The notes under the pieces were generated by a model that worked only from the letters and a program-made list of their open reading frames with translations, searched no databases and had not been told where the DNA came from. This document shows positions 12,483 to 26,534 of a DNA stretch of 64,000 nucleotides, piece by piece (the first letter of the stretch is position 1; every line of letters starts with the position of its first letter). A program made the position numbers and the translations under genes. This stretch comes from Dictyostelium discoideum (Eukaryota), in assembly GCA_000004695.1 (NCBI GenBank), contig CM000152.2, forward strand, positions 320,001 to 384,000, given 5' to 3'.

Positions 12483-14836
12483 CATTTGATTTAAATGGTA
12501 AAAAACCTACCAAAAGTAATGTTGTAAGATTATTATTAAATAGAACTAATTCTGGAAGCAATTTATTATCAAAAAGAAGAACTTCAGAGACAGGAGATGA
12601 TGATAGTAATTCTAGTGTTGGTTTATTGAATAACAGTACTGGTAGTATAGGTAAAATGAATACACCAGAATCATCACCCAAATCATCATATATTCTAAGT
12701 AGTAGTATTGGTAGTGGTGGTAGTGGTGGTGGAGGTGGTAGTAGTGGTAGTCTTCAAAATTTAGATAGTGCTAGTAATAATAGTAGTGGCCCAAGGAGTA
12801 GAAGTGGTAGTCTTGGTAAAAATAATAGTAGCCAACAAAATAATAATAATTTAATATTAGACCCAAATTTTAATAATATTGATAAATCATTATGGACTGT
12901 TAGATCATTAAAAGAACATTCAAATCTTGTTGATATTATGGAAAGAATTAAACCAGCAAGTAGAGCCATTTCATTTGGTCAAATTTATGCAAGTGAAGAA
13001 ACTCAATTTGAATTTGATCCAGTTATTGGTCGTGATAATATTTTACAATTAATTTTACAACATTTACAATTTGAAGGTTTAATGGACTCTAGAAAAATTT
13101 TAGAAGAGGAAGCTAAAATTCAATATCCAGAATATACATTCAATGAATCAAGATTAGTCACCTTATTACGTGCTGTCATAAAAGATTCTGATAAAGTTTT
13201 CGATCTAACTCTAAATGATAGAGATAAAGATTCTCAACAAAAATTAGAAGAACATTTAGCATTCCTTGGTTTATTCAAAGATGAATCTCAAACTAATATG
13301 GTTGAAGATGTAAATATCTATGATGAACCTGAAAATTCAAATATTATATATGTAGATGAAAAAGATAATGATAAACCTTCAAAAGATTCACCAACAACAG
13401 CAACAACAACAACGACAGCAACAACAATTGCACCAAGTACAAGTATTAATAATTTATCAAGTTTATCAGTTAGTATAAGTTCAAATAATATAAATAATAA
13501 TAATAATAATAATAATAATATAAATAATTTAAATAGTACACAATTAATTAGTAATACACAACAACAACAAGCAACACCAAATACACCACCACAAGGTTTA
13601 AAATCAACACAATCAATTACAGGATCAACTGGTACATTAGGACCACAAGTTAAAGCAGCATCATTAAATAAATTAGTAATTTTATTAACACCAGAGAATA
13701 ATCATGATTTAGAGTATACAAAGACATTTTTATTAATGTATCAATCATTTACAACACCAGAGATATTATTACAGAAATTGATTCAACGTTATCATGTACC
13801 ACAAAAGGCAGGTCAATCAGTTGCAGAATGGAGACAACGTTCAACTCATATTCAACTTCGTGTACTAAATGTATTGAAAACTTGGATCAAAGATTATTTC
13901 TCTGATTTCTCTGAAAAGTTAATACTTGCCATTAAATCATTATTGGAATCAATGAGACAAACTGGTAATATGTCTTATGCAAAGGTGATTTCCGATGCCT
14001 TGAATTCAGGTTTAAAGAAAAGTGGTCGTAATAACACGGTTTTCACAGTTTCAGCACCCGAGCCTAAAGTACCTAAAAACATTTGGTCTCACAATTTAGA
14101 CATTTTCTCTGTGGATGAAGAGGAGATCTCTAGACAATTGACCTTGATGGACTTTGAAATCTTTTCAAATATTAAATCAACTGAACTTTTAAATCAGTGT
14201 TGGAATAAACCAAAACTACGTCACCGTTCTCCAAATGTTTTAGAATTAATTGGTCGTTTCAATGAAATCTCTCAATGGACTGCCACTTCGATTCTCTCAT
14301 GGCCCAAGGTTAAAGACAGAGCTAGAATCATGGGTAAATTCATAAAGATCGCTGAATACTGTATGAAGCATTTAAATAATTTCAATACTTCAATGGCAAT
14401 TCTTTCCGGTTTAAACGCTTCCTCAGTGCACAGATTAAAATTCACAAAAGAGGAATTACCAAGACACACTCAACAAGTTTACACAGAGTTACAATTTCAT
14501 CTAAGTTCAGCCCAAGCTTACAAAGAGTATCGTGCTTTATTAGCCAAGGCTAATCCACCATGTTTACCTTATCTTGGTGTTTATTTAACAGATTTAACAT
14601 TCTTTGAAGAAGGTAATCCCGATTTCATTCAAGGTTTTATCAATTTCGGTAAAAGAAAGTTAATCTATGGTTCAATCTCAAATGTTCAAAGTTTTCAAAA
14701 TACAAAATATAATTTACAACCTGTTTATCAAATTGCAAAATTATTAAAAGGTTTTAAACTTTTAGAAGAAAATGAACTTTATACAAGATCAATGTCTTTT
14801 GAACCAAGAAATAAAGAAAGAAGTGAAATTTTATAA
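12483..14836 (+). CDS. Ras guanine-nucleotide exchange factor main exon: RasGEF N-terminal (REM) domain followed by a CDC25-homology catalytic domain
   Basis: The frame is open upstream of the track M (12626) back to acceptor ATTATTAG at 12481-12482. REM-like region LVILLTPENN...TFLLMYQSFTTPEILLQKLIQRY. CDC25 motifs LTLMDFEIFSNIK...ELLNQCW, ...NPPCLPYLGVYLTDLTFFEEGNPDF. Confidence 0.85.
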
Positions 14837-15396: not shown

Positions 15397-16191
15397 TTTT
15401 TTATTTTTTATTATTATCTGTTTAAAATTTTAATATATTTAAAATGTTTTTTTAAATTTTTTTTTTTCGTTCTTATACTTTTTTTTTTTTCCTTTTTTAT
15501 TAAATGAAAATTTAGTAAAAATTAAAATTAAAATTAAAATTTAATAAAAATCCTTTTTTTGGAAATTTCACCCACATTCTAATATTTTCATAAAAAATAT
15601 TTTCACAATTTAAAAGACACACAAAGAAAGAAACTTTTGGAAATTTGAAAAAAAAAAAAAAAAATAAAAAAAATAAAAAAATAAAAAAAAAATAAAAAAG
15701 TTAATTTTAATATTATAATAAACAATGATACCATATTATTGTAATAATTATAAAATTTGAAATAAATAATATTTTTTTTTAAAATAATATATTATTTTTT
15801 TTTTATTTTAATTTAATATTTTCAGTTTTCTATTTTTATTGTTATTATTATTATTTTTTTTTTTAAAGAAATTTAAAGTTACCAAAATTAGGGAATTTAA
15901 ATTAATCCTGATGAATTGTAAACATTACTTTGATATTAAAATTTTTTTATTATTAACAAAATTGATAAATGAGTGATGGATTATTTTTTATAAGGGAATA
16001 ATTTTTTCATCTTGAATATTAACTGAGAATCTTATTTCTAATTCACCTCTTTCATTCAAAAAATCTTGTAAAACTTTTCTTGATTCTGTAAAACTATTAC
16101 CCAACCCAAATTTCTCGATTCTTCGAAATCTATTAGAAGCAATATTAGTATTAAACATCTTTAAATAAATTTATAATAAAGAGAATATACG

Positions 16192-17273
16192 CTATTTACC
16201 TTGATGATATGGTCCAAATGATATCACAGTGGCAGTTGAATCATCTGGTGGAATTAAAGAAAATGAAAACATATATTTTAAGAGTATATCGGATCTTGTT
16301 TTTCTCATTAAATATATACCAAGCTTTCCTTTATTTCCGGTATTGCCTTTTGGATAAATCCTAATATTAAATTTGTGAGATCCCACTTTAAAAACATTTG
16401 ATTCTTTATATTTTTCATGGGTATATAATGCACTAACACTTCTATAGTCAGGAATAATCCATTTGTTACTGTATTCCATCTCTTTAAAACCATTCTGTTT
16501 CAAAACATTTATTTCCTTTTTCAATTGAGTATAATCACAAAGGAGGATGTTAAGTTTTTGATTAATTTCTTCCATTTTTTTTTCTTGATTTAAAAAACTT
16601 TGATTATCTTTTTTTATTATTTCATTTTGATTCATTAGTTTTGTGACTGAATGTTCTAAAGAGTGAATTTTCATTTTTGATCTAGGAAAAAGTTTTCCAC
16701 ATAAAAATTCTTGACAAATAATATTAATATCAGACAATCATCATTTATATGTTTAGTTTTTGTATCTCTTTTAATCATAATTTTACAATGAGAGCATTCT
16801 ATTAAATATTTTGTGCAATGTGTTTTATGATGATCAGATAATGACGATCTTTGAATATTACTATTACAATATACACATTTTGAATATACTTTTGAACATT
16901 CATTTTGATGTTTGTCTGAATCCTTACTAAAAAACTTAATTAAACATAAATCACATTGCAATATTCTTGATTCACAAACTTTATAATGATTCTCTAATTC
17001 ACTAAATTTCATTACACCATGATTACATAGATCTTGATGTAATGTTTGATTGCTATTATTAATAGCAGGTAAACCCAACATGTTGAGTCTAAATACATTT
17101 TCGTTTGAATTTGGACAAAAAACCAATCTGTCTTTTAACCAATTAGAATATTCATTTTCCAAAAATCTATTTCTTGATAATTCTGAAATAGAAGAAATTG
17201 GTGTTTTACAAGTCATACACTTTTTATTTGTACTTAAATATCTTTCCCAACAACTTCTACAAGCTAAATGACC
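16192..17273 (-). CDS. TRAF-family paralog A, exon 2 (rest of RING, three TRAF-type zinc fingers, coiled coil, C-terminal MATH domain). A 1-bp deletion relative to copy B near 16735-16745 splits the frame, so this may be a pseudogene or a sequence error
   Basis: Acceptor AAAAAG|GGTCAT at 17274-17275. Track ORFs 16671..17216 and 16192..16737 are the two halves in different frames. Alignment to copy B shows 38 nt versus 39 nt between identical flanks. Confidence 0.55.
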
Positions 17274-17348
17274 CTTTTTCCAAAATTATAAATATTATAT
17301 GGTTAGAATAAATAATGTTAGATTATTAATAATATAATTTATATTTAC

Positions 17349-17549
17349 TTCTTTGCATTGAAGAGCTTTTGGTTCACTTCCAATAAATAATTCTAAACTA
17401 CAAATAATACATTCATATTTTTCTTCATCTGAATCAAATAAAATATCTTTTATTTCATATTTAATTGGAATTGCTGTTTGTGTAATTCTTGTTGGAGATG
17501 TTGCGTTGTTTACATGATTTAAAATACCGAACATTTTTTTTAAAGACAT
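17349..17549 (-). CDS. TRAF-family paralog A, exon 1 (N-terminal half of a C3HC4 RING finger: ...YECIICSLELFIGSEPKALQCKE|)
   Basis: ATG at 17549; GTAAAT donor at 17348; phase 0; near-identical to copy B exon 1. Confidence 0.6.
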
Positions 17550-17837
17550 TAAAAGAACAAATATAATAAAAAAGAAAATTCTAAGACATTAAAAGAACAA
17601 AAATAAAAAAAAAAGAAAAAAAAGAAATATAATAGGAAATGGCAGTTTGTGTTTTTTAAAAAATTTTTTTTTTTAATTACGAAAATAAATTTGATATTTG
17701 ATTTATTTATTATTGATTATCTTGATCAAAATTAAATTAACAAATAATAAATCTTTAAAAATTTAATTGATTAGACCATGTAAAAAAATTAGTATAATAA
17801 AAAAAAAATTAAGATAAAATATTATATTTAATTTTTT

Positions 17838-17860: not shown

Positions 17861-18476
17861 TTTAATTTTTTTTATTATCTTTTGTAATATCTTTTAATTG
17901 TTTTTAAAAAATTTTTTTATTCTACTTGAAGTATACTTTTTTTAATTTTTTTATTCCACTTGAAGTATACTTTTTTTAATTTTTTTTTTTTTTTATGAAG
18001 TTTGATATAATATTATAATAAACAAAGATTATTGTAATATTATAAAATTTGAAATAAATAATTTTTTTTTTTTTAAATCAATATATTGTTTTTTATTTTA
18101 ATTTAATATATTTCATTTTATTTTTATTACTATTATTTTTTTCAATCAAATTTAAAGTTACCAAGATAGAGAGTTCGAATTAATCCTGATGAATTATAAA
18201 CATTAGTTTTATATTAAATTTTTTTTATTATTAACAAGACTAATATATGAGCGATCTATTAATTTTTATAAGGGAATAATTTTTTCATCTTGAATAGTAA
18301 TTGAGAAACTTATTTCTAATTCACCTTTTTCATTCAAAAAATCTTTTAAAACCTTTCTTGAATCTGTAAATACATTAGTACCACAACTCAAACTTCTAGA
18401 TTCTTCGAAATCTATTAGAAGCAATATTAGTACTTATTAACTTCTTTAAATAAATTTAAAATAAAGAGAATATAAA

Positions 18477-19556
18477 CTATTTACCTCTATGGATTGGTCC
18501 TAATGATACTTTTGTAGCAGTTGAATCTTCTGGTGGAAGTAAAGAAAATGAAAACATATATTTTAAGAGTATACCATATCTTGGTTTCCTTTCTAAAAAT
18601 ACACCAAACTTTCCTTGTTTTCCGGCTTGACCATTTGGATAAATCTTAATATAAAATGTGTGGGATCCCACTTGAAAATCATTTGAATTTTTACTCTTTT
18701 TATGAGTATATAAAGCATTAAAACTTCTATATTCAGGAATAATCCATTTGTTACTGTATACCATCTCTTTAAAACTGTTCTGTTTCAAAACAGCTATTTC
18801 ATTTTTCAATTGAATATAATTATTAAGGAGGTTGTTAAGTTTTAGTTTAATTTCTTCGATTTTTTTTTCTTGATCCAAATTTTGATTATCTTTTTTTATT
18901 ATTTCATTTTGATTCATTAGTTTTGTGACTGAATGTTCTAAAGAATGAATTTGCATTTTTGATCTAGTAAAACGTTTGCCACATAAATATTCCGAACAAG
19001 TAATCATAATTTCTTCACAATCATCATTTATATGTTTTGTTATTGTATCTCTTTTAATCATAATTTTACAATGAGGGCATTCTATTAAATATTTTGTGCA
19101 ATGTGTTTTATGATGATCAGATAATGATGATCTTAGAATATTACTATTACAAAATTCACATTTTGAATATACTTTTGAACATTCATTTTGATGTTTGTCT
19201 GAATCCTTACTACAAAATTTAATTAAACATAAATTACATTGTAATATTCTTGATTCACAAGCTTTATAATGATTCTGTAATTCACTAAATTTCATTGCAC
19301 CATGATTACATAGATCTTGATGTAATGTTTGATTGCTATTATTAATAGCAGGTAAACCCGACATATTGAGTCTAAATACATTTTCGTTTGAATTTGGACA
19401 AAAAACTAGTCTATCGTTTAACCAATTAGAATATTCTTTTTCCAAGTATCTATTTCTTGATAATTCTGAAATTGAAGAAATTGGTGTTTTACAAGTCATA
19501 CACTGTTTATTTGTGCTTAGATATCTTTCCCAACAACGTCTACAAGCTAAATGACC
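18477..19556 (-). CDS. TRAF-family paralog B, exon 2 (intact). Product of about 424 aa with RING (C3HC4, split by the intron), TRAF zinc fingers, coiled coil and MATH/TRAF-C domain
   Basis: GHLACRRCWERYLSTNKQCMTC completes the RING. Repeated C-x-C...H...C zinc-finger units. C-terminal YSNKWIIPEYRSF...FYIKIYPNG...FGVFLE MATH-like strands. Acceptor TAAAG|GGTCAT. Confidence 0.75.
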   Translation of the reverse strand, partial: GHLACRRCWERYLSTNKQCMTCKTPISSISELSRNRYLEKEYSNWLNDRLVFCPNSNENVFRLNMSGLPAINNSNQTLHQDLCNHGAMKFSELQNHYKACESRILQCNLCLIKFCSKDSDKHQNECSKVYSKCEFCNSNILRSSLSDHHKTHCTKYLIECPHCKIMIKRDTITKHINDDCEEIMITCSEYLCGKRFTRSKMQIHSLEHSVTKLMNQNEIIKKDNQNLDQEKKIEEIKLKLNNLLNNYIQLKNEIAVLKQNSFKEMVYSNKWIIPEYRSFNALYTHKKSKNSNDFQVGSHTFYIKIYPNGQAGKQGKFGVFLERKPRYGILLKYMFSFSLLPPEDSTATKVSLGPIHRGK

Positions 19557-19635
19557 CTTTATTTAAATGATTTTAATTAAATTATATGGTTAGAATAAAT
19601 ATTGTGATATAATTGATAATTTAATTAATATTTAC

Positions 19636-19827
19636 TTCTTTGCATTGAAGAGCTTTTGGTTCACTTTCAATAAATAATTCTAAAGTACAAATATCACATT
19701 CATACTTTTCTTCATCTGAATCAACTAATATATCTTTTATTTCATATTTAATTGGGATTACTTTTGGTGTAATTTTTGTTGGAGATGTTGGGTTGTTTAT
19801 GTTGTTAATTAGATTTATAAAATCAAG

Positions 19828-19830
<3 letters not shown>
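19636..19830 (-). CDS. TRAF-family paralog B, exon 1 (RING N-half, CDIC...C)
   Basis: ATG 19830; donor GTAAAT at 19635; intron 19557..19635. Confidence 0.7.
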
Positions 19831-19860
<30 letters not shown>

Positions 19861-20519
19861 CTAATAATGAGTATGAACAAAAATTAAAAAATAAAAGAAA
19901 AAAAGAAGAATAATTGGAAATTATGGTGAGTGTTACTGTTTGGAGGATGTTAAAAAAAAAAAAAAAAAAAAAAAAATAAATCAAAAATTAATCGTAATTT
20001 ATTTTAAAAAAAAAAAAAAAAATTTTTTTTCAATTTTGATTTTTGATTTATTATCTAGATTTAAAGCACAATGAAGCAGTTAGGGAATTAATTTTTTTTT
20101 TTTTGGGATATTTTTTTCTTTTTTTGGTGTCACGAAATCAGGAAAATAAAAAAAAATTAAAAATTAAAAATATATATTAATTATTTTTTTTTTTTTTAAT
20201 TTTACATTTTTATATTTTATTTATTTTTATATTTTTATTGTTTTTTTCAATGAAATTTAAAATTTCCAAAAATAGAGCAATTGATAATTTTTTATAATGG
20301 AACAGTTTCTTCACCTTTAATATTAATTGTGAAATATAATTCTAGTTCACCCCTTTCATTCAAATAATTTTTTAAAACATTTGTTGAATCTGTAAATTCA
20401 CTAGTACCCCAAAAGAAATTTTTAGATTCATGAAAATCTAATAGAAGCAAAATTAGTATTTTTTTTTTTCATCTTTAAATAAATTAATAAAAATGAGAAT
20501 AAACAGTATTTACCTATAT

Positions 20520-21780
20520 AGCATGGTTTCGATTTAATAATTTTTTTAAAATTTGAATCATTTGGTGGATTTTTAAAAAATAAAATATCATGTGTGCCAT
20601 ATATTGGCTCTCTAACTAATAATACAGCAAACTTTCCATGTTTTTTGGCCCTGCATTTGGATAAATCCTAAGATTAAATTTGTGAGAGCCCACTTTTAAA
20701 AACATTTGAATCTAAGTGCTTTTAATAATTCACTAACCTTTTAATAGTCATGAATAACCCATTTGTTTGTATGTCCTATTTCTTTTAAAACCATTATCTT
20801 TTGTATTAGTTAACCCATTTTGATTCATTAATTTGGCTACTGAATGTTCTAAAGAATGGATTTGTCTTTTTGTTCTCTTAAAACTTTTGCCACATAAATA
20901 TTCTGGACAAAAATCATTATTTCTTCACAATCATCATTTAAATGTTTTGTTTTTGTATCTCTTTCACTCACCATTTTACAATAAGTACATTCTATTGTAG
21001 ATCATCATTATCTGATCATCATAAAACTTATTGTAAAAAAAATTTTTTACAATAAGTTTTATGATGATCAGATAATGATGATCTTATGATATCAGTATTA
21101 CAAAATTCACATTTTAAAAATACTTTTGGACATTCATTTTGATGTTTTTCAGAGTCCATACCAAAAAACTTAACTAAACATAAATTACATTGTAATATTT
21201 CTAGATTCACAATTTTGAATATGTTTCTCTAATTCACTGAATTTCATTACTCCACGAATACACAAATCTTAATGTAATTTTTGATCAATGCTATTATTTT
21301 CATTATTAATAGCAGGAGAACCTAACATGTTGATTCTATATAAATTTTCAATGGAATATGGACAAACAACTAATCTATTTGATAGTCAATCAGAATATTC
21401 ATTTTCAAAAATTCTATTTCTTGATAATTCTGAAATTGGCATTTTACAAATCATACAATCTTTTTTTGTTCTTAAATGACTTTCCCAACAATTTGAACAA
21501 ACTAAATGACCCTTTTTAAAATATATATTTGGTTAGAATAAATGATGTGTTATATTAAATAAAAAAATTGTATATTTACTTCTTTGCATTGAAGAGCACT
21601 TGCATGATTTCCAATAGAATATTCTGAATAATAATTACATTCATATTTTTCTGCATCTGAATCAACTAAAATATCTTTTGTTTCATATTCAATTGAGACT
21701 GTTATTGGTGTAATTTTTGTTGAAGATGTTGTGTTGTTCAAATGATTAAAAATACCAAACATTTTGTTTTTTCCAACCAA
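20520..21780 (-). pseudogene. TRAF-family paralog C, shattered pseudogene: recognisable exon-1 and zinc-finger pieces, internal deletions (coiled coil/MATH mostly gone) and an inverted duplication at 21001-21082
   Basis: Track fragments 21550..21780 (MVGKNKMFGIFNHLNN...YECNYYS...) and 21028..21210 (ILQCNLCLVKFFGMDSEKHQNECPKVFLKCEFCNTDI) align to copies A/B but are in different frames with stops. Confidence 0.6.
21001..21082. repeat. near-perfect palindrome, two 40-bp inverted arms (atcatcattatctgatcatcataaaacttattgtaaaaaa / reverse complement) centred on an A8T6 run, inside TRAF pseudogene C
   Basis: The right arm is the native TRAF zinc-finger coding sequence (same as 19105-19140 in copy B); the left arm is its inverted copy. 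Confidence 0.7.
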
Positions 21781-21839
21781 AATAAAAAAAAAATAAAAAT
21801 AAAAATAAAAAAGTTCTAGTTCGGAGGAGGAAAAAAAAA

Positions 21840-22200
21840 AAAAAAGAAATCAAAGGAACTTGTTTTTAGTGTGATGGTTTTGAGGATGTTAAAAAAAGAA
21901 ATAAAGTAACTGGTAGTGAGTATTATGGTTTTAAGGGTGTAAAAAATTAAAAAAATAGAAATAAAAGAAATGTTGGTGATTATATAGTTTTAAACTATAT
22001 GGTTTGTAGGATGTGAAAAAAAGAAATAAAAAAAAAGAAATCAAAGAACCGTTGGTGATTTTATAGTTTTATTGTTTTAAGGATTTTAAAAAAAGAAATA
22101 AAATATCTGGTGGTAAATATTATGGTTTTGAGGATGTAAAAAAAAAAAAAAAAAAAGAAATCGAAGGATTTTATAGTTTGCATGAAGTTAAAAAAAAAAA
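21840..22200. repeat. minisatellite of about six 55-70 bp units (gaaat...ggtggtga.tattatggttttgaggatgt.aaaaaaa) in the 5' flank of TRAF copy C; single copies of the same element lie upstream of copy B (19900-19950) and copy A (17610-17660)
   Basis: Direct visual periodicity: the ggttttgaggatgt / ggtttgtaggatgt / ttttaagggtgt cores recur 6 times separated by poly-A. Confidence 0.6.
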
Positions 22201-22259
22201 TTTAAAAAATAAATAAAATTTTTCTCAACTTAATTTTAATTATACAAAATATATTCAAC

Positions 22260-22760
22260 TTATTTTTTAACACTATTGATTAATGGTAAACCCATATTGA
22301 GTCCAAATGTATTTAATTTGGAATATGGACAAACAACTAATCTATTATTTAACCAATTAAAATATTCATTTTCTAAATATCTACTTCTTGATAACATTAA
22401 AATTGATGGAATTGGAGTTCTGCAAATCATACACTCTTTTCTTAAAACTAAACATTTTTCCCAACAACTTTTACAAGCAAAATGACCCTATTTTTTTTTA
22501 AATTATATAAATAAATAATGTAGTGAGTATAATTATTATATTTTAATTATTAGATATGTATGTATTTATTTATTTACTTCTTTGCATTGAAGAGCTTCTG
22601 GTTTTTTCTCATTAATTAACTCTGAATTACAAATATCGCATTCATATTTTATTTCACTTGAATCAACTAATATATCTTTTATTTCATATCTAATTTGGGC
22701 TGGTATTGTTTCAATTTTTGTTGGACCTCTTCTATCCATTAGAGATACGACCCTAATCAT
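22260..22760 (-). pseudogene. TRAF-family paralog D, truncated. Exon 1 (22578..22760) plus a shortened exon 2 (22260..22487) give an intact 140-aa RING-only ORF; zinc-finger, coiled-coil and MATH parts are absent. Either a remnant or a RING-only neo-gene
   Basis: Same exon-1/intron/acceptor architecture as A/B (GTAAAT donor 22577, acceptor AATAG|GGTCAT). The frame runs ...[30 protein letters not shown]... to TAA at 22260. Confidence 0.45.
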
Positions 22761-23670: not shown

Positions 23671-26448
23671 TTAATTTAAAATACCTCTACCAAAATATTC
23701 AGAAACAGTAGTGAAACCATCAGGAGAACTTCTTAATAATTTAAAGAATTGATCATGTTGATTGGCGGAATCAGCTTGTGATCTTTTAATCTCTTGAATT
23801 CTTTTATTAGCACCAGCACAAGAAGGACATTCTCTTTCATTCTCACCGAGACATCTTTGATGGAAAGAATGTTGACATAAAAAGTGAACACTTGGTAAAT
23901 CCAAAGCCAATAGACAAGCGATACATTTAGTTTGTTGGAAAATTTTAGAATTTGTACGAAGTTCGTTGATTTCATGTCTCATCTTTTCAGTCTCATCGGC
24001 GTATTGTCTGATTTGAGTGTAATCCTTATCGATTTGTTGAGTTTCTTGAGACAATCTTCTAGAGATATAATCTTTGATGACGGCCAAAGTGGTATTCTTA
24101 TTTTGTGATAGGATTTGTATTACCAAGAGTGGTGGAATGAGATTCTCCTTATCGATGTTGGTCAACACCTCGATGATCTCATCTTGACAATCCTGTTTAT
24201 TGGTTGAAAAGAATGACAATGCTCTCACCCAAAGGTTTGGATCTTTTACACCATATCTCTTGCAAGCTTTGATCAAGCCATCGTAATCATTATTCTCCAT
24301 ATGGTACTCGATGATCTCATTGAATAACTCTAACTTTTCATATAAATACAATACACCCTCCTTCCAATTATGAACTTGTACTAAAATCAATGCATGATCT
24401 TGATCAAATTTTGATTTTGGATTCGTTAAAAATTCATATGCTTTCGCTTTTCTCTTTATTCTCTCATCATCAGTTTGATTGACATCATCTCTCAAATATA
24501 ACTCTAACAATGTATTATAAATTAATGATGATTCATTATTACCTTGTTGTACCATATATTCTAAAAATTTAACTAACCAATCTGCTTGTGATACAAAAAT
24601 ATGAATAAATTCTTCTGGTGCTGATTTTTGTTTAAATCCAATATTATTATTATTATTATTATTATTATTTTGATTATTATTATTACTATTATTATTTTGA
24701 TTATTATTATTTGTTACATTTGTTACAGTTGTTGTTGTTGTTGTTTGATTACTAATTGTTAAACCATTTAAATTTAAAGCTGTTAAAGAATCAAAAGCTT
24801 GAACTGGTTGATAATTTGTACATAATTTCATTAAGACACCAGTAGTTTCTTCAGGAATTTCAGAGACTAATTGTTTACCATATTTTTTAAGATTTTTATC
24901 AGCTTCTTCCCAATCAAGTGTTTGAATGTAATCTAAAGCTTTTCTATATTCATTGAGATCCTCCAAGAGAATTTTAAGATACCAATCGTGACGACTATGT
25001 TTTGATGCTAAAAAGAGTGCACGATCGAAATAACCACCTTGACGACAAACTTTAATTGCTGTCTCGACATCGAATGTACCATTGTCTGTCATAATGAAAT
25101 GATCGAGTTTCTTTACATCCTTTAATTTGGTATAACAATTCAAGAGTAGTGTAGTGTGGTTGGCTGTGGCTAAATTCTTCTCATGCAATGCTTGAATGTA
25201 TGATGTAAGATTATGAATTCTTTGAGCGTCCAAGAACTTTCTAATGACATAAGATGGCTCCAACTGACCAATCGTGCAAAGGTATTGGGTGATGGCGCCG
25301 TCGTAGTCGCCCTTGGCATACAACCTGTCGCCATACTCCCTATAGACGTCTGCAATGGCACTATTGTCATAATGCTGTGACTTTGCTAAATCGATAGCCA
25401 CTTGATATGAATGCTTCTTAAACAAGGTTTCCAACTTGGTTTGTGTGTCTTTCTCCTCCAATTGAAACACCTTACCATCGGCACCAAATATGAAAATTGA
25501 GCCCCACTCACTGCAAATATGAGACACTGTATCGAACTTCTCTGTGAAACCAATATATTTATTCTTTAAATCATAGATATTCAATACATTGTTTTTCGTG
25601 TTTTGCACCATAACCGATGGCGACCCAATACTACCTGTCTGACTACCCAACCCACCTATGCTATTCTGTCCGCCTACCACAGCACCTGGGAACAAGGCAT
25701 TGGTGTTGTTAGTGTCATATCCAATCACTACCAAATAGGAACGGAACCACAGCACTTTGGTCTTCACACCTGTGAAACCAAAACACGGTCCTCTTCCATC
25801 CACATTATAGAAATAAATTGCATCTGATCTTGCTATAATTGGCGACCCATCGTCACTCATTAAAAACGAGCCGATGTCACCCCCCTCATCGTCTATTATC
25901 GTCTCTTGATCTTTATGTGCTGTATGATAGGTTATAACATGTGTTGTTGTCACTACAAACAACACTGCACCCGCACTCGCACTCTGTTGACTCTTTGTTG
26001 GGAAAAACCCTAACCCTGTAATTGGCGAATCGTTTGGTACTTTGATAATCTTTTGTTTAATAACTTTATCTCTAAATATATCTGCTCTAATTATAATGAT
26101 TTCACCATTTGCTAAACCAACGATAATCTGTGACAAATCTTCCAACAATGTGAAACATGTTACTGTAACTGATTTCTCTAATTTAATAGATCTAACACAA
26201 ATTGGTTGTTCATTCTTATCAGTTTTATCAAGATTCCAAATTTTTAAGATTGCTGCACCACCAATATCATCATGACCAACTGAAGAAAGGAAATTTCTCT
26301 CCTTTAATTGATAAATTAATGATACTGATTGTTGATATGCTTGAAATGATGATATTCCAAATTCTCTATCTACAAAATTAATAAAACCTTCTGCATCACC
26401 AATAATTAAACTACCACGACCACTAGTTGTACATGTAATTGATAATTT
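23671..26448 (-). CDS. vps11: Vps11 (HOPS/CORVET core subunit) exon 2: beta-propeller, clathrin-heavy-chain-like repeats, C-terminal RING-H2
   Basis: C-terminus CIACLLALDLPSVHFLCQHSFHQRCL...CPSC...FTTVSEYFGRGILN closely parallels human VPS11 (LPSVHFLCGHSFHQHCF...CPTC...FSVIADYFGRGVFN). Also YVIRKFLDAQRIHNLTSYIQALH and TTLLLNCYTKLKD match. Confidence 0.85.
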   Translation of the reverse strand, partial: KLSITCTTSGRGSLIIGDAEGFINFVDREFGISSFQAYQQSVSLIYQLKERNFLSSVGHDDIGGAAILKIWNLDKTDKNEQPICVRSIKLEKSVTVTCFTLLEDLSQIIVGLANGEIIIIRADIFRDKVIKQKIIKVPNDSPITGLGFFPTKSQQSASAGAVLFVVTTTHVITYHTAHKDQETIIDDEGGDIGSFLMSDDGSPIIARSDAIYFYNVDGRGPCFGFTGVKTKVLWFRSYLVVIGYDTNNTNALFPGAVVGGQNSIGGLGSQTGSIGSPSVMVQNTKNNVLNIYDLKNKYIGFTEKFDTVSHICSEWGSIFIFGADGKVFQLEEKDTQTKLETLFKKHSYQVAIDLAKSQHYDNSAIADVYREYGDRLYAKGDYDGAITQYLCTIGQLEPSYVIRKFLDAQRIHNLTSYIQALHEKNLATANHTTLLLNCYTKLKDVKKLDHFIMTDNGTFDVETAIKVCRQGGYFDRALFLASKHSRHDWYLKILLEDLNEYRKALDYIQTLDWEEADKNLKKYGKQLVSEIPEETTGVLMKLCTNYQPVQAFDSLTALNLNGLTISNQTTTTTTVTNVTNNNNQNNNSNNNNQNNNNNNNNNIGFKQKSAPEEFIHIFVSQADWLVKFLEYMVQQGNNESSLIYNTLLELYLRDDVNQTDDERIKRKAKAYEFLTNPKSKFDQDHALILVQVHNWKEGVLYLYEKLELFNEIIEYHMENNDYDGLIKACKRYGVKDPNLWVRALSFFSTNKQDCQDEIIEVLTNIDKENLIPPLLVIQILSQNKNTTLAVIKDYISRRLSQETQQIDKDYTQIRQYADETEKMRHEINELRTNSKIFQQTKCIACLLALDLPSVHFLCQHSFHQRCLGENERECPSCAGANKRIQEIKRSQADSANQHDQFFKLLRSSPDGFTTVSEYFGRGILN

Positions 26449-26534
26449 CTTTTTTTTTTTCAATAATAATAATAATAGTAAAAAATAAATTAGTATTAAA
26501 TTCTTATTAATATTATTTTTTTGTGAATACATAC

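Follow-up and report, generated by a model that had tools for sequence, protein, structure and literature searches.

A tandem array in front of a decayed TRAF-like gene copy of Dictyostelium discoideum is probably a promoter-derived minisatellite

In front of a decayed TRAF-like gene copy of Dictyostelium discoideum, we have identified an array of head-to-tail repeats that is likely a minisatellite derived from a promoter of the surrounding gene cluster, the amplification of which would have been neutral and most likely without a selected function. The array is located in a window of 64,000 nucleotides (the whole stretch of DNA that was analysed), which contains about 20% GC, is rich in homopolymers and encompasses a Vps11 gene, an array of TRAF-like genes and a RasGEF gene (DDB_G0278131 region of this organism). 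The TRAF-like genes reside on the minus strand and are flanked by the genes coding for Vps11 (23671-26532) and RasGEF (12626-14836), so that 'upstream' refers to higher window coordinates and the repeat is read as reverse complement. The window contains four TRAF-like copies instead of the three that were previously assumed:

15988-17534, minus strand: copy A, TRAF-like, frameshifted after ...INDDC, ATG at 17534
18266-19830, minus strand: copy B, intact, three exons, 470 amino acids in the spliced translation, ATG at 19830
20295-21762, minus strand: copy C, TRAF-like pseudogene with multiple stops and frameshifts, directly downstream of the array
22269-22760, minus strand: copy D, 5' fragment of a TRAF-like gene that reaches through exon 1 and the intron into the start of exon 2, its promoter without the element described below

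For comparison, we have used five further haplotypes of the Vps11/TRAF/RasGEF region and three unlinked loci, which together with the window amount to 236 kb. Among these haplotypes, L001 hardly differs from the window, L002 and L005 are from other assemblies of D. discoideum, and L003 and L004 come from D. cf. discoideum.

Copy B (DDB_G0278133) encodes a protein with RING, zf-TRAF and MATH_2 domains (Pfam), which matches a D. discoideum protein at 100% identity, and the adjacent fragment corresponds to DDB_G0278131 of strain AX4. Our search of the literature on DDB_G0278133 and DDB_G0278131 found no entries. In D. discoideum, the TRAF-like family comprises more than 40 members (PMC5758549), and the nearest relatives outside D. 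discoideum and D. cf. discoideum score far lower, with 201 and 161 bits compared to 926 bits for self, and 25-34% identity in the alignment. Copies A and B are homologous throughout the gene and the intergenic region with a period of 2283 bp, and the gene copies generally share 2.0-2.3 kb of continuous homology. The original prediction singled out copy C as the dead copy of the cluster, which is justified by its many stops, but copy A is frameshifted and copy D truncated as well. The frameshift in copy A is located at 16730-16740 and results in two reading frames, which are annotated in an AX4-type assembly as split products (DDB_G0278131 with 262 amino acids and a MATH fragment with 127). Since its orthologue in L002 is an intact gene of 469 amino acids, copy A is probably also a pseudogene in the AX4-type strain. 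The orthologues of copy D are equally intact in L002 and L005 (455-458 amino acids), and a deletion has reduced copy D to the fragment found in AX4. Further upstream of the start of copy A, we find two tandem duplications, one with a 40-bp unit in 1.9 copies with 91% identity that duplicates the start-codon context (TTGTTCTTTTAATGTCTT..., 17543-17619) and one with a 34-bp unit in 2.3 copies with 97% identity about 400 bp upstream (17910-17986), which show that duplications of promoter regions are frequent in the TRAF-like cluster.

The array in front of copy C, for which about six tandem units had been anticipated, indeed consists of six in-register head-to-tail units. They occupy 21831-22190, are read on the gene-sense (minus) strand and measure 50-75 bp each, so that the unit length falls into the range of 10-100 bp that defines a minisatellite. 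When cut after each core, the units have the following coordinates:

21831-21890, minus strand: unit U1
21891-21941, minus strand: unit U2
21942-22016, minus strand: unit U3
22017-22088, minus strand: unit U4
22089-22138, minus strand: unit U5
22139-22190, minus strand: unit U6
21813-21830, minus strand: candidate decayed seventh unit U0, CCTCCTCCGAACTAGAAC, most proximal, about -68 to -51 from the ATG of copy C
22191-22268, minus strand: distal flank of the array (AAAAAATAAGTTGAA...TAAGTTGAGAA...), homologous to L003 4552-4626

All six units are recovered by an nhmmer profile at E-values of 1e-12 to 4e-5. A repeat alignment places six copies of the core with its A-run at 21874-22204, with spacings of 51, 74, 72, 51 and 51 bp, and assigns one further copy, at 19935-19966 upstream of copy B, to the same repeat family. 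The 14-mer GGTTTTGAGGATGT is found as exact match at 21876 and 22124; if up to three mismatches are tolerated, it occurs 17 times in the window compared to 6.7 ± 2.7 expected occurrences, a number that is reached in 0 of 100 shuffles, and six of these 17 matches are sites in the array and at copy B. Tandem Repeats Finder (TRF), which had been suggested for the definition of exact unit boundaries, reports just 2.1 copies with a period of 51 at 21839-21946, because the units are only 73-91% alike, with indels, and variable in length. The units belong to two types, with U1, U4 and U6 being 88-91% alike and U2 and U5 86%, and a two-unit block of 93 nt recurs at a distance of 197 bp with 84% identity. 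Both features indicate that the array would have been amplified in several rounds, one of which was a three-unit step. Finally, U0, which was initially spotted by eye, shows a weak similarity to the element consensus in a local alignment (z=2.7, 14 of 500 shuffles) and occupies a place equivalent to that of the proximal unit in the L003 array (-80 to -35). It is probably a decayed seventh unit.

The composition of the array sets it apart from other repeats of the region. Its sense strand (about 364 bp, 23% GC) contains 74 C compared to 10 G and eight T-tracts of at least 6 nt compared to zero such A-tracts. TRF lists 648 rows in the window. Among the non-coding tandem repeats in the entire 236 kb with a period of at least 40 and at least about three copies, all others contain no more than 3% GC, and the GC-containing long-period repeats besides the array are exclusively coding. 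The array is found in the same genomic setting as the A/T-only simple and long-period repeats that constitute a large part of the D. discoideum genome and probably shares their slippage-prone mechanism, but differs from them by its 23% GC, its strong strand bias of C over G and its complex unit; it is atypical in composition while being ordinary in kind, as a promoter minisatellite. At another place of the window (40131-41251), a 123-bp tandem repeat with about six copies and a further 1.8, 36% GC and C-rich on the plus strand, is probably a repetitive coding region that is unrelated to the array.

In gene sense, each unit begins with a C-rich box (ACATCCTCMAAACC), continues with a TATA-like stretch and a CACC box and closes with a T-tract. 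Its 5' part reads [A/T]ACATCCTCAAAACC, also written ACATCCTC(A/C)AAACC, its middle ATAATA or TATAAAAT followed by CAC(C/T)ACCAGTT(C/A)CTTT(G)ATTTC, and its 3' end consists of T7 to T19 after ...GATTTC. The 13-mer half-motifs, if searched alone with up to two mismatches, are nonspecific, with 8 of 22 and 13 of 19 matches being located elsewhere, some of them in coding sequence. Specificity consequently resides in the composite element only. Related elements are found in the promoters of copies B and A:

19893-19951, minus strand: single element in the promoter of copy B at -121 to -63 relative to the ATG, AACATCCTCCAAACAGTAACACTCACCATAATTTCCAATTATTCTTC and then a T-rich tract, profile E=3.4e-10
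17623-17654, minus strand: degenerate remnant of the element in the promoter of copy A, AAACACAAACTGCCATTTCCTATTATATTTCT, -120 to -89 from the ATG

A single element had been predicted 60-120 bp upstream of the start codons of both copies. This was confirmed for copy B, where the 27-mer GGTGAGTGTTACTGTTTGGAGGATGTT is unique and located at 19925-19951, 95-121 bp upstream of the ATG at 19830. The T-rich tract following the element ends near -40, from which a short A-rich leader would be predicted. In case of copy A, neither of the two originally quoted cores is present. The positional homologue at 17599-17674 is 62% identical over 76 nt, and the remnant within this region has kept the 3' half of the element (CCATTTCCTATTATATTTC) and lost the 5' C-rich box. 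It is detected at E=0.0047 with a profile whose training included the sequence of copy A and escapes detection by an independent profile built from the window units and the copy B element.

The architecture of the units is reminiscent of Pol II promoters in Dictyostelium (Kimmel and Firtel 1983; Chang et al. 2012, PMC3371697), where poly-T tracts on the sense strand end about 2 bp before the transcription start, the sequence TATAAA(A/T)(A/T) is located about 29 bp upstream of the start, embedded in poly-T tracts, and further T/A tracts keep the promoter free of nucleosomes (PMC3371697). The resemblance concerns the sense-strand poly-T of 7-19 nt that ends each unit, the TATAAAAT in two of the units and the copy B element, which is found at the position expected for a core or proximal promoter. 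Differences concern the absence of a consensus TATA box in most units, as none was found in the other four or in the elements of copies A and B, and the spacing in the two units that contain it: in both U4 and U6, TATAAAAT lies 34 bp ahead of the end of the T-tract, which is about 7 bp longer than implied by the published geometry. The TATA consensus has a background rate of 1.2 per kb. On the basis of position and architecture, the single element is probably a proximal or core promoter. In intact genes, it would combine a transcription-factor site with a T-tract that excludes nucleosomes and defines the start site.

The same boxes could be read differently, with the units representing small non-coding RNA genes or their promoters, such as those of Class I RNA with a DUSE, or fragments of mobile elements, which we regard as extremely improbable. 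The C-rich box of U2, ACACCCTTAA, is one base off the DUSE consensus [AT]CCCA[CT]AA, and the T-run at the end of each unit could serve as a Pol III terminator. Conversely, the 11-nt Class I motif occurs at chance level (9 matches compared to 9.9 expected), and a search of the array against Rfam remained negative even with a threshold of E<=1. The group 4 DUSE is characterized by three consecutive Cs about 60 nt upstream of the RNA, often accompanied by an AAATGTG box (PMC7919456), whereas only one of the six units contains CCC and none a TGTG box. Class I RNA, DUSE and any Rfam family were rejected on these grounds. With respect to mobile elements, no dispersed copies were found in the 236 kb, which include loci with integrase-bearing elements. 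A further candidate, the origin of the unit from the coding sequence of exon 1, where AACATCTCCAACAAAAATTACACC looks alike by eye, was rejected since the observed scores are reached by 86, 15 and 211 of 500 shuffles and since a profile finds no match in any exon 1. Pairwise Smith-Waterman comparison is underpowered for these sequences, as even a true unit pair is reached by 21 of 500 shuffles, and we have thus relied on profile E-values.

In all six haplotypes, an element in the same orientation is located 50-140 bp upstream of every copy of the A/B/C type. With a first profile that was trained solely on the six units of the window and the element of copy B, single copies upstream of A/B-type starts were detected in L002 (E=9e-6 and 0.014), L003 (8e-5), L004 (0.002 and 0.24) and L005 (4.5e-8), and all matches of this profile are on the gene-sense strand. 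Every intact A/B-type gene contains exactly one element. D-type promoters are devoid of it in each haplotype, and a refined profile found no match at E<=1 elsewhere in the 236 kb, including the remainder of the 64-kb window. For the wider family, word-indexed protein searches with copy B or the cluster alignment retrieved this cluster only, and unlinked paralogues were reached only when HMMER was run exhaustively and the index was searched a third time. The resulting sample of 11 unlinked TRAF-family genes encompasses seven genes or fragments of a large cluster (L006), two genes in L008 and two from D. citrinum (L007), and the refined profile, searched on both strands at E<=1, has zero matches upstream of any of them. 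The element is specific to the A/B/C sub-cluster and not to the TRAF family. The proposal of a family-specific cis-regulatory module is consequently retained in part: the element is promoter-proximal, fixed in its orientation and present at all A, B and C copies, which makes a regulatory role plausible, but its absence from D-type copies, from the 11 unlinked genes and from the rest of the 236 kb contradicts family-specificity, and neither the enrichment at other TRAF promoters nor a family-wide TRAF motif withstood the comparison with the unlinked genes. Copies A, B and C have the element because they inherited it as part of the duplicated gene unit of 2.0-2.3 kb, which includes the whole promoter. 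Between AX4 and L002, the identity of the element of about 87% (counted from the sequences) compares to 88.4% across the 4.7-kb B-A block, and hence does not reveal conservation above the background of the locus and does not demonstrate purifying selection.

The number of array units varies between haplotypes, with 6-7 units in the window and L001, five in L003, two in L005 and zero in L002 and L004. The five units in L003 (4627-5029) are located upstream of a C-like gene. In L005, two units at 14121-14220 (E=4e-7 and 3e-9) are directly joined to a remnant that is 96% identical to the end of exon 2 of AX4 copy C, from which it follows that most of copy C was deleted in this haplotype, and both ends of this two-unit remnant are cut inside units. 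L002 contains neither the array nor copy C. At the distal end of the array, the homology of AX4 to intact D genes ends at 22269, and the 78 bp of the distal flank match the flank of the L003 array with a score of 66 (z=5.9, 0 of 500 shuffles). No other place in L003 matches better, and the matching segment adjoins the array there, where the first unit in turn resembles U6 (z=4.1). The array, or at least its distal border, is therefore older than the separation of D. discoideum from D. cf. discoideum. Between D and B, L005 (11766-13909) and L002 (7341-9489) contain an AT-rich segment of 2.1 kb (19% GC) that is apparently non-coding. AX4 lacks this segment common to L002 and L005 together with the 3' part of D, and the two losses together mark a deletion that removed about 3 kb from the AX4-type haplotype.

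This variability bears on the suggestion that the element is prone to recombination and mediates the unequal exchanges and deletions that shape the gene array, a role of a hotspot that we consider quite unlikely. The first part of the suggestion agrees with the instability of the minisatellite (7, 5, 2, 0 and 0 units), which occupies the most rearranged interval of the cluster. Large deletions with one end in or close to the array distinguish three D. discoideum haplotypes, and the L005 remnant has truncated units at both of its ends. The second part is not supported, since the 2.0-2.3 kb of homology between gene copies is by itself sufficient for unequal exchange and since the deletion that truncates copy D in AX4 ends about 80 bp distal to the array, in unique flank. 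Moreover, the interval holds pseudogenes, where deletions would be tolerated in any case, and the independent events are very few.

A selected regulatory device, consisting either of a homotypic cluster of transcription-factor sites or of reiterated core promoters, would offer another explanation for the persistence of the array, although an unlikely one. Such a device could boost or tune the downstream copy or its neighbours, and changes in its copy number could provide evolvability as in promoter repeats of yeast. Multi-unit arrays with a common distal border have been kept in AX4 (6-7 units) and in L003 of D. cf. discoideum (five units), and their retention in two long-split lineages could reflect selection rather than drift. 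In addition, the units retain their G/C-containing boxes and T-tracts, and the gene downstream of the array in L003 is still called, as a product of 289 amino acids with RING and zf-TRAF domains. Against this stand the stops that fill copy C downstream of the array in AX4, the fusion of the L005 units to a gene remnant and the divergence of the units (73-91%, with indels), which is as expected in the absence of constraint. Equally, intact genes always carry exactly one element, and L002 and L004 have intact A/B-type genes without an array. Where present, the array always precedes a dead or truncated copy. We judge its amplification as neutral because decayed genes are the only ones that it precedes and because two haplotypes with intact genes do without it.

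The decayed copies contain a second unusual feature, which in the window is found inside copy C:

20999-21040 and 21043-21084 (L001 8747-8832), no strand assigned: perfect palindrome inside copy C, 42-nt arms, 2-nt spacer

It arose when the coding sequence just before it was inserted a second time in inverted orientation, and it is present in both AX4-type assemblies and absent in L003. As RNA, it is predicted to fold with -58.5 kcal/mol (z=-13.9), and one of its arms contains an exact 29-nt word of the intact copy B and 23 nt of copy A. Rfam provides sub-threshold miRNA-like matches on both strands, and in the literature we found no published small RNA that matches the arms. That copy C would be a hairpin small-RNA locus, which silences its own gene family in trans and is driven by the reiterated promoter modules, is in our view very improbable. 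A different perfect palindrome with 49-nt arms and a 22-nt spacer is found in L003 (6439-6558) at the 3' end of a C-like TRAF gene. Palindromes in decayed copies of two lineages may point to a recurrent template-switch mechanism or may be artefacts of assembly.

For the promoter-derived minisatellite, which remains the preferred explanation of the array, we envisage the following history. The unit would have its source in a proximal promoter segment of about 50 bp of the A/B/C lineage, in a young TRAF-like cluster. Since each unit is bracketed by homopolymer T-runs, it would be prone to replication slippage or unequal sister-chromatid exchange between these runs, which may have led to the initial duplication. 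Later unequal exchanges among units, suggested by the alternating unit types and the three-unit higher-order repeat of 197 bp, would have expanded and contracted the array. Amplification would have started before D. discoideum and D. cf. discoideum diverged, followed by drift to 7, 5, 2 or 0 units.

Comparable arrays are known from other organisms. Unstable promoter repeats have reportedly been found in yeast (Vinces et al. 2009), and variable-number tandem repeats are located upstream of human genes such as INS and MAOA. With these, the array shares the head-to-tail organization, a repeat length of tens of bp, the position directly before a gene, the copy number that varies between strains, the origin by slippage or unequal exchange and the capacity to contain regulatory sequence, but it differs in that its unit is the proximal promoter module of the gene itself and in that it stands in front of a pseudogene. 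The cluster as a whole resembles tandem clusters of fast-evolving immune-type genes that undergo birth and death, with intact, frameshifted, truncated and deleted copies varying between strains, with the difference that the element occurs in just one sub-lineage (A/B/C) of a single cluster. No novel type of regulation or recombination emerges from the array. It is usable as a strain marker that varies in copy number, and ACATCCTCCAAAC...CACCnCCAnTTCCTATT followed by a T-tract provides a candidate element for the expression of the young TRAF-like sub-cluster. If the proposed origin is true, the array would be a clear and datable case of a core or proximal promoter module that becomes a minisatellite after the constraint on its gene is lost, in a genome where homopolymer tracts bracket promoters.
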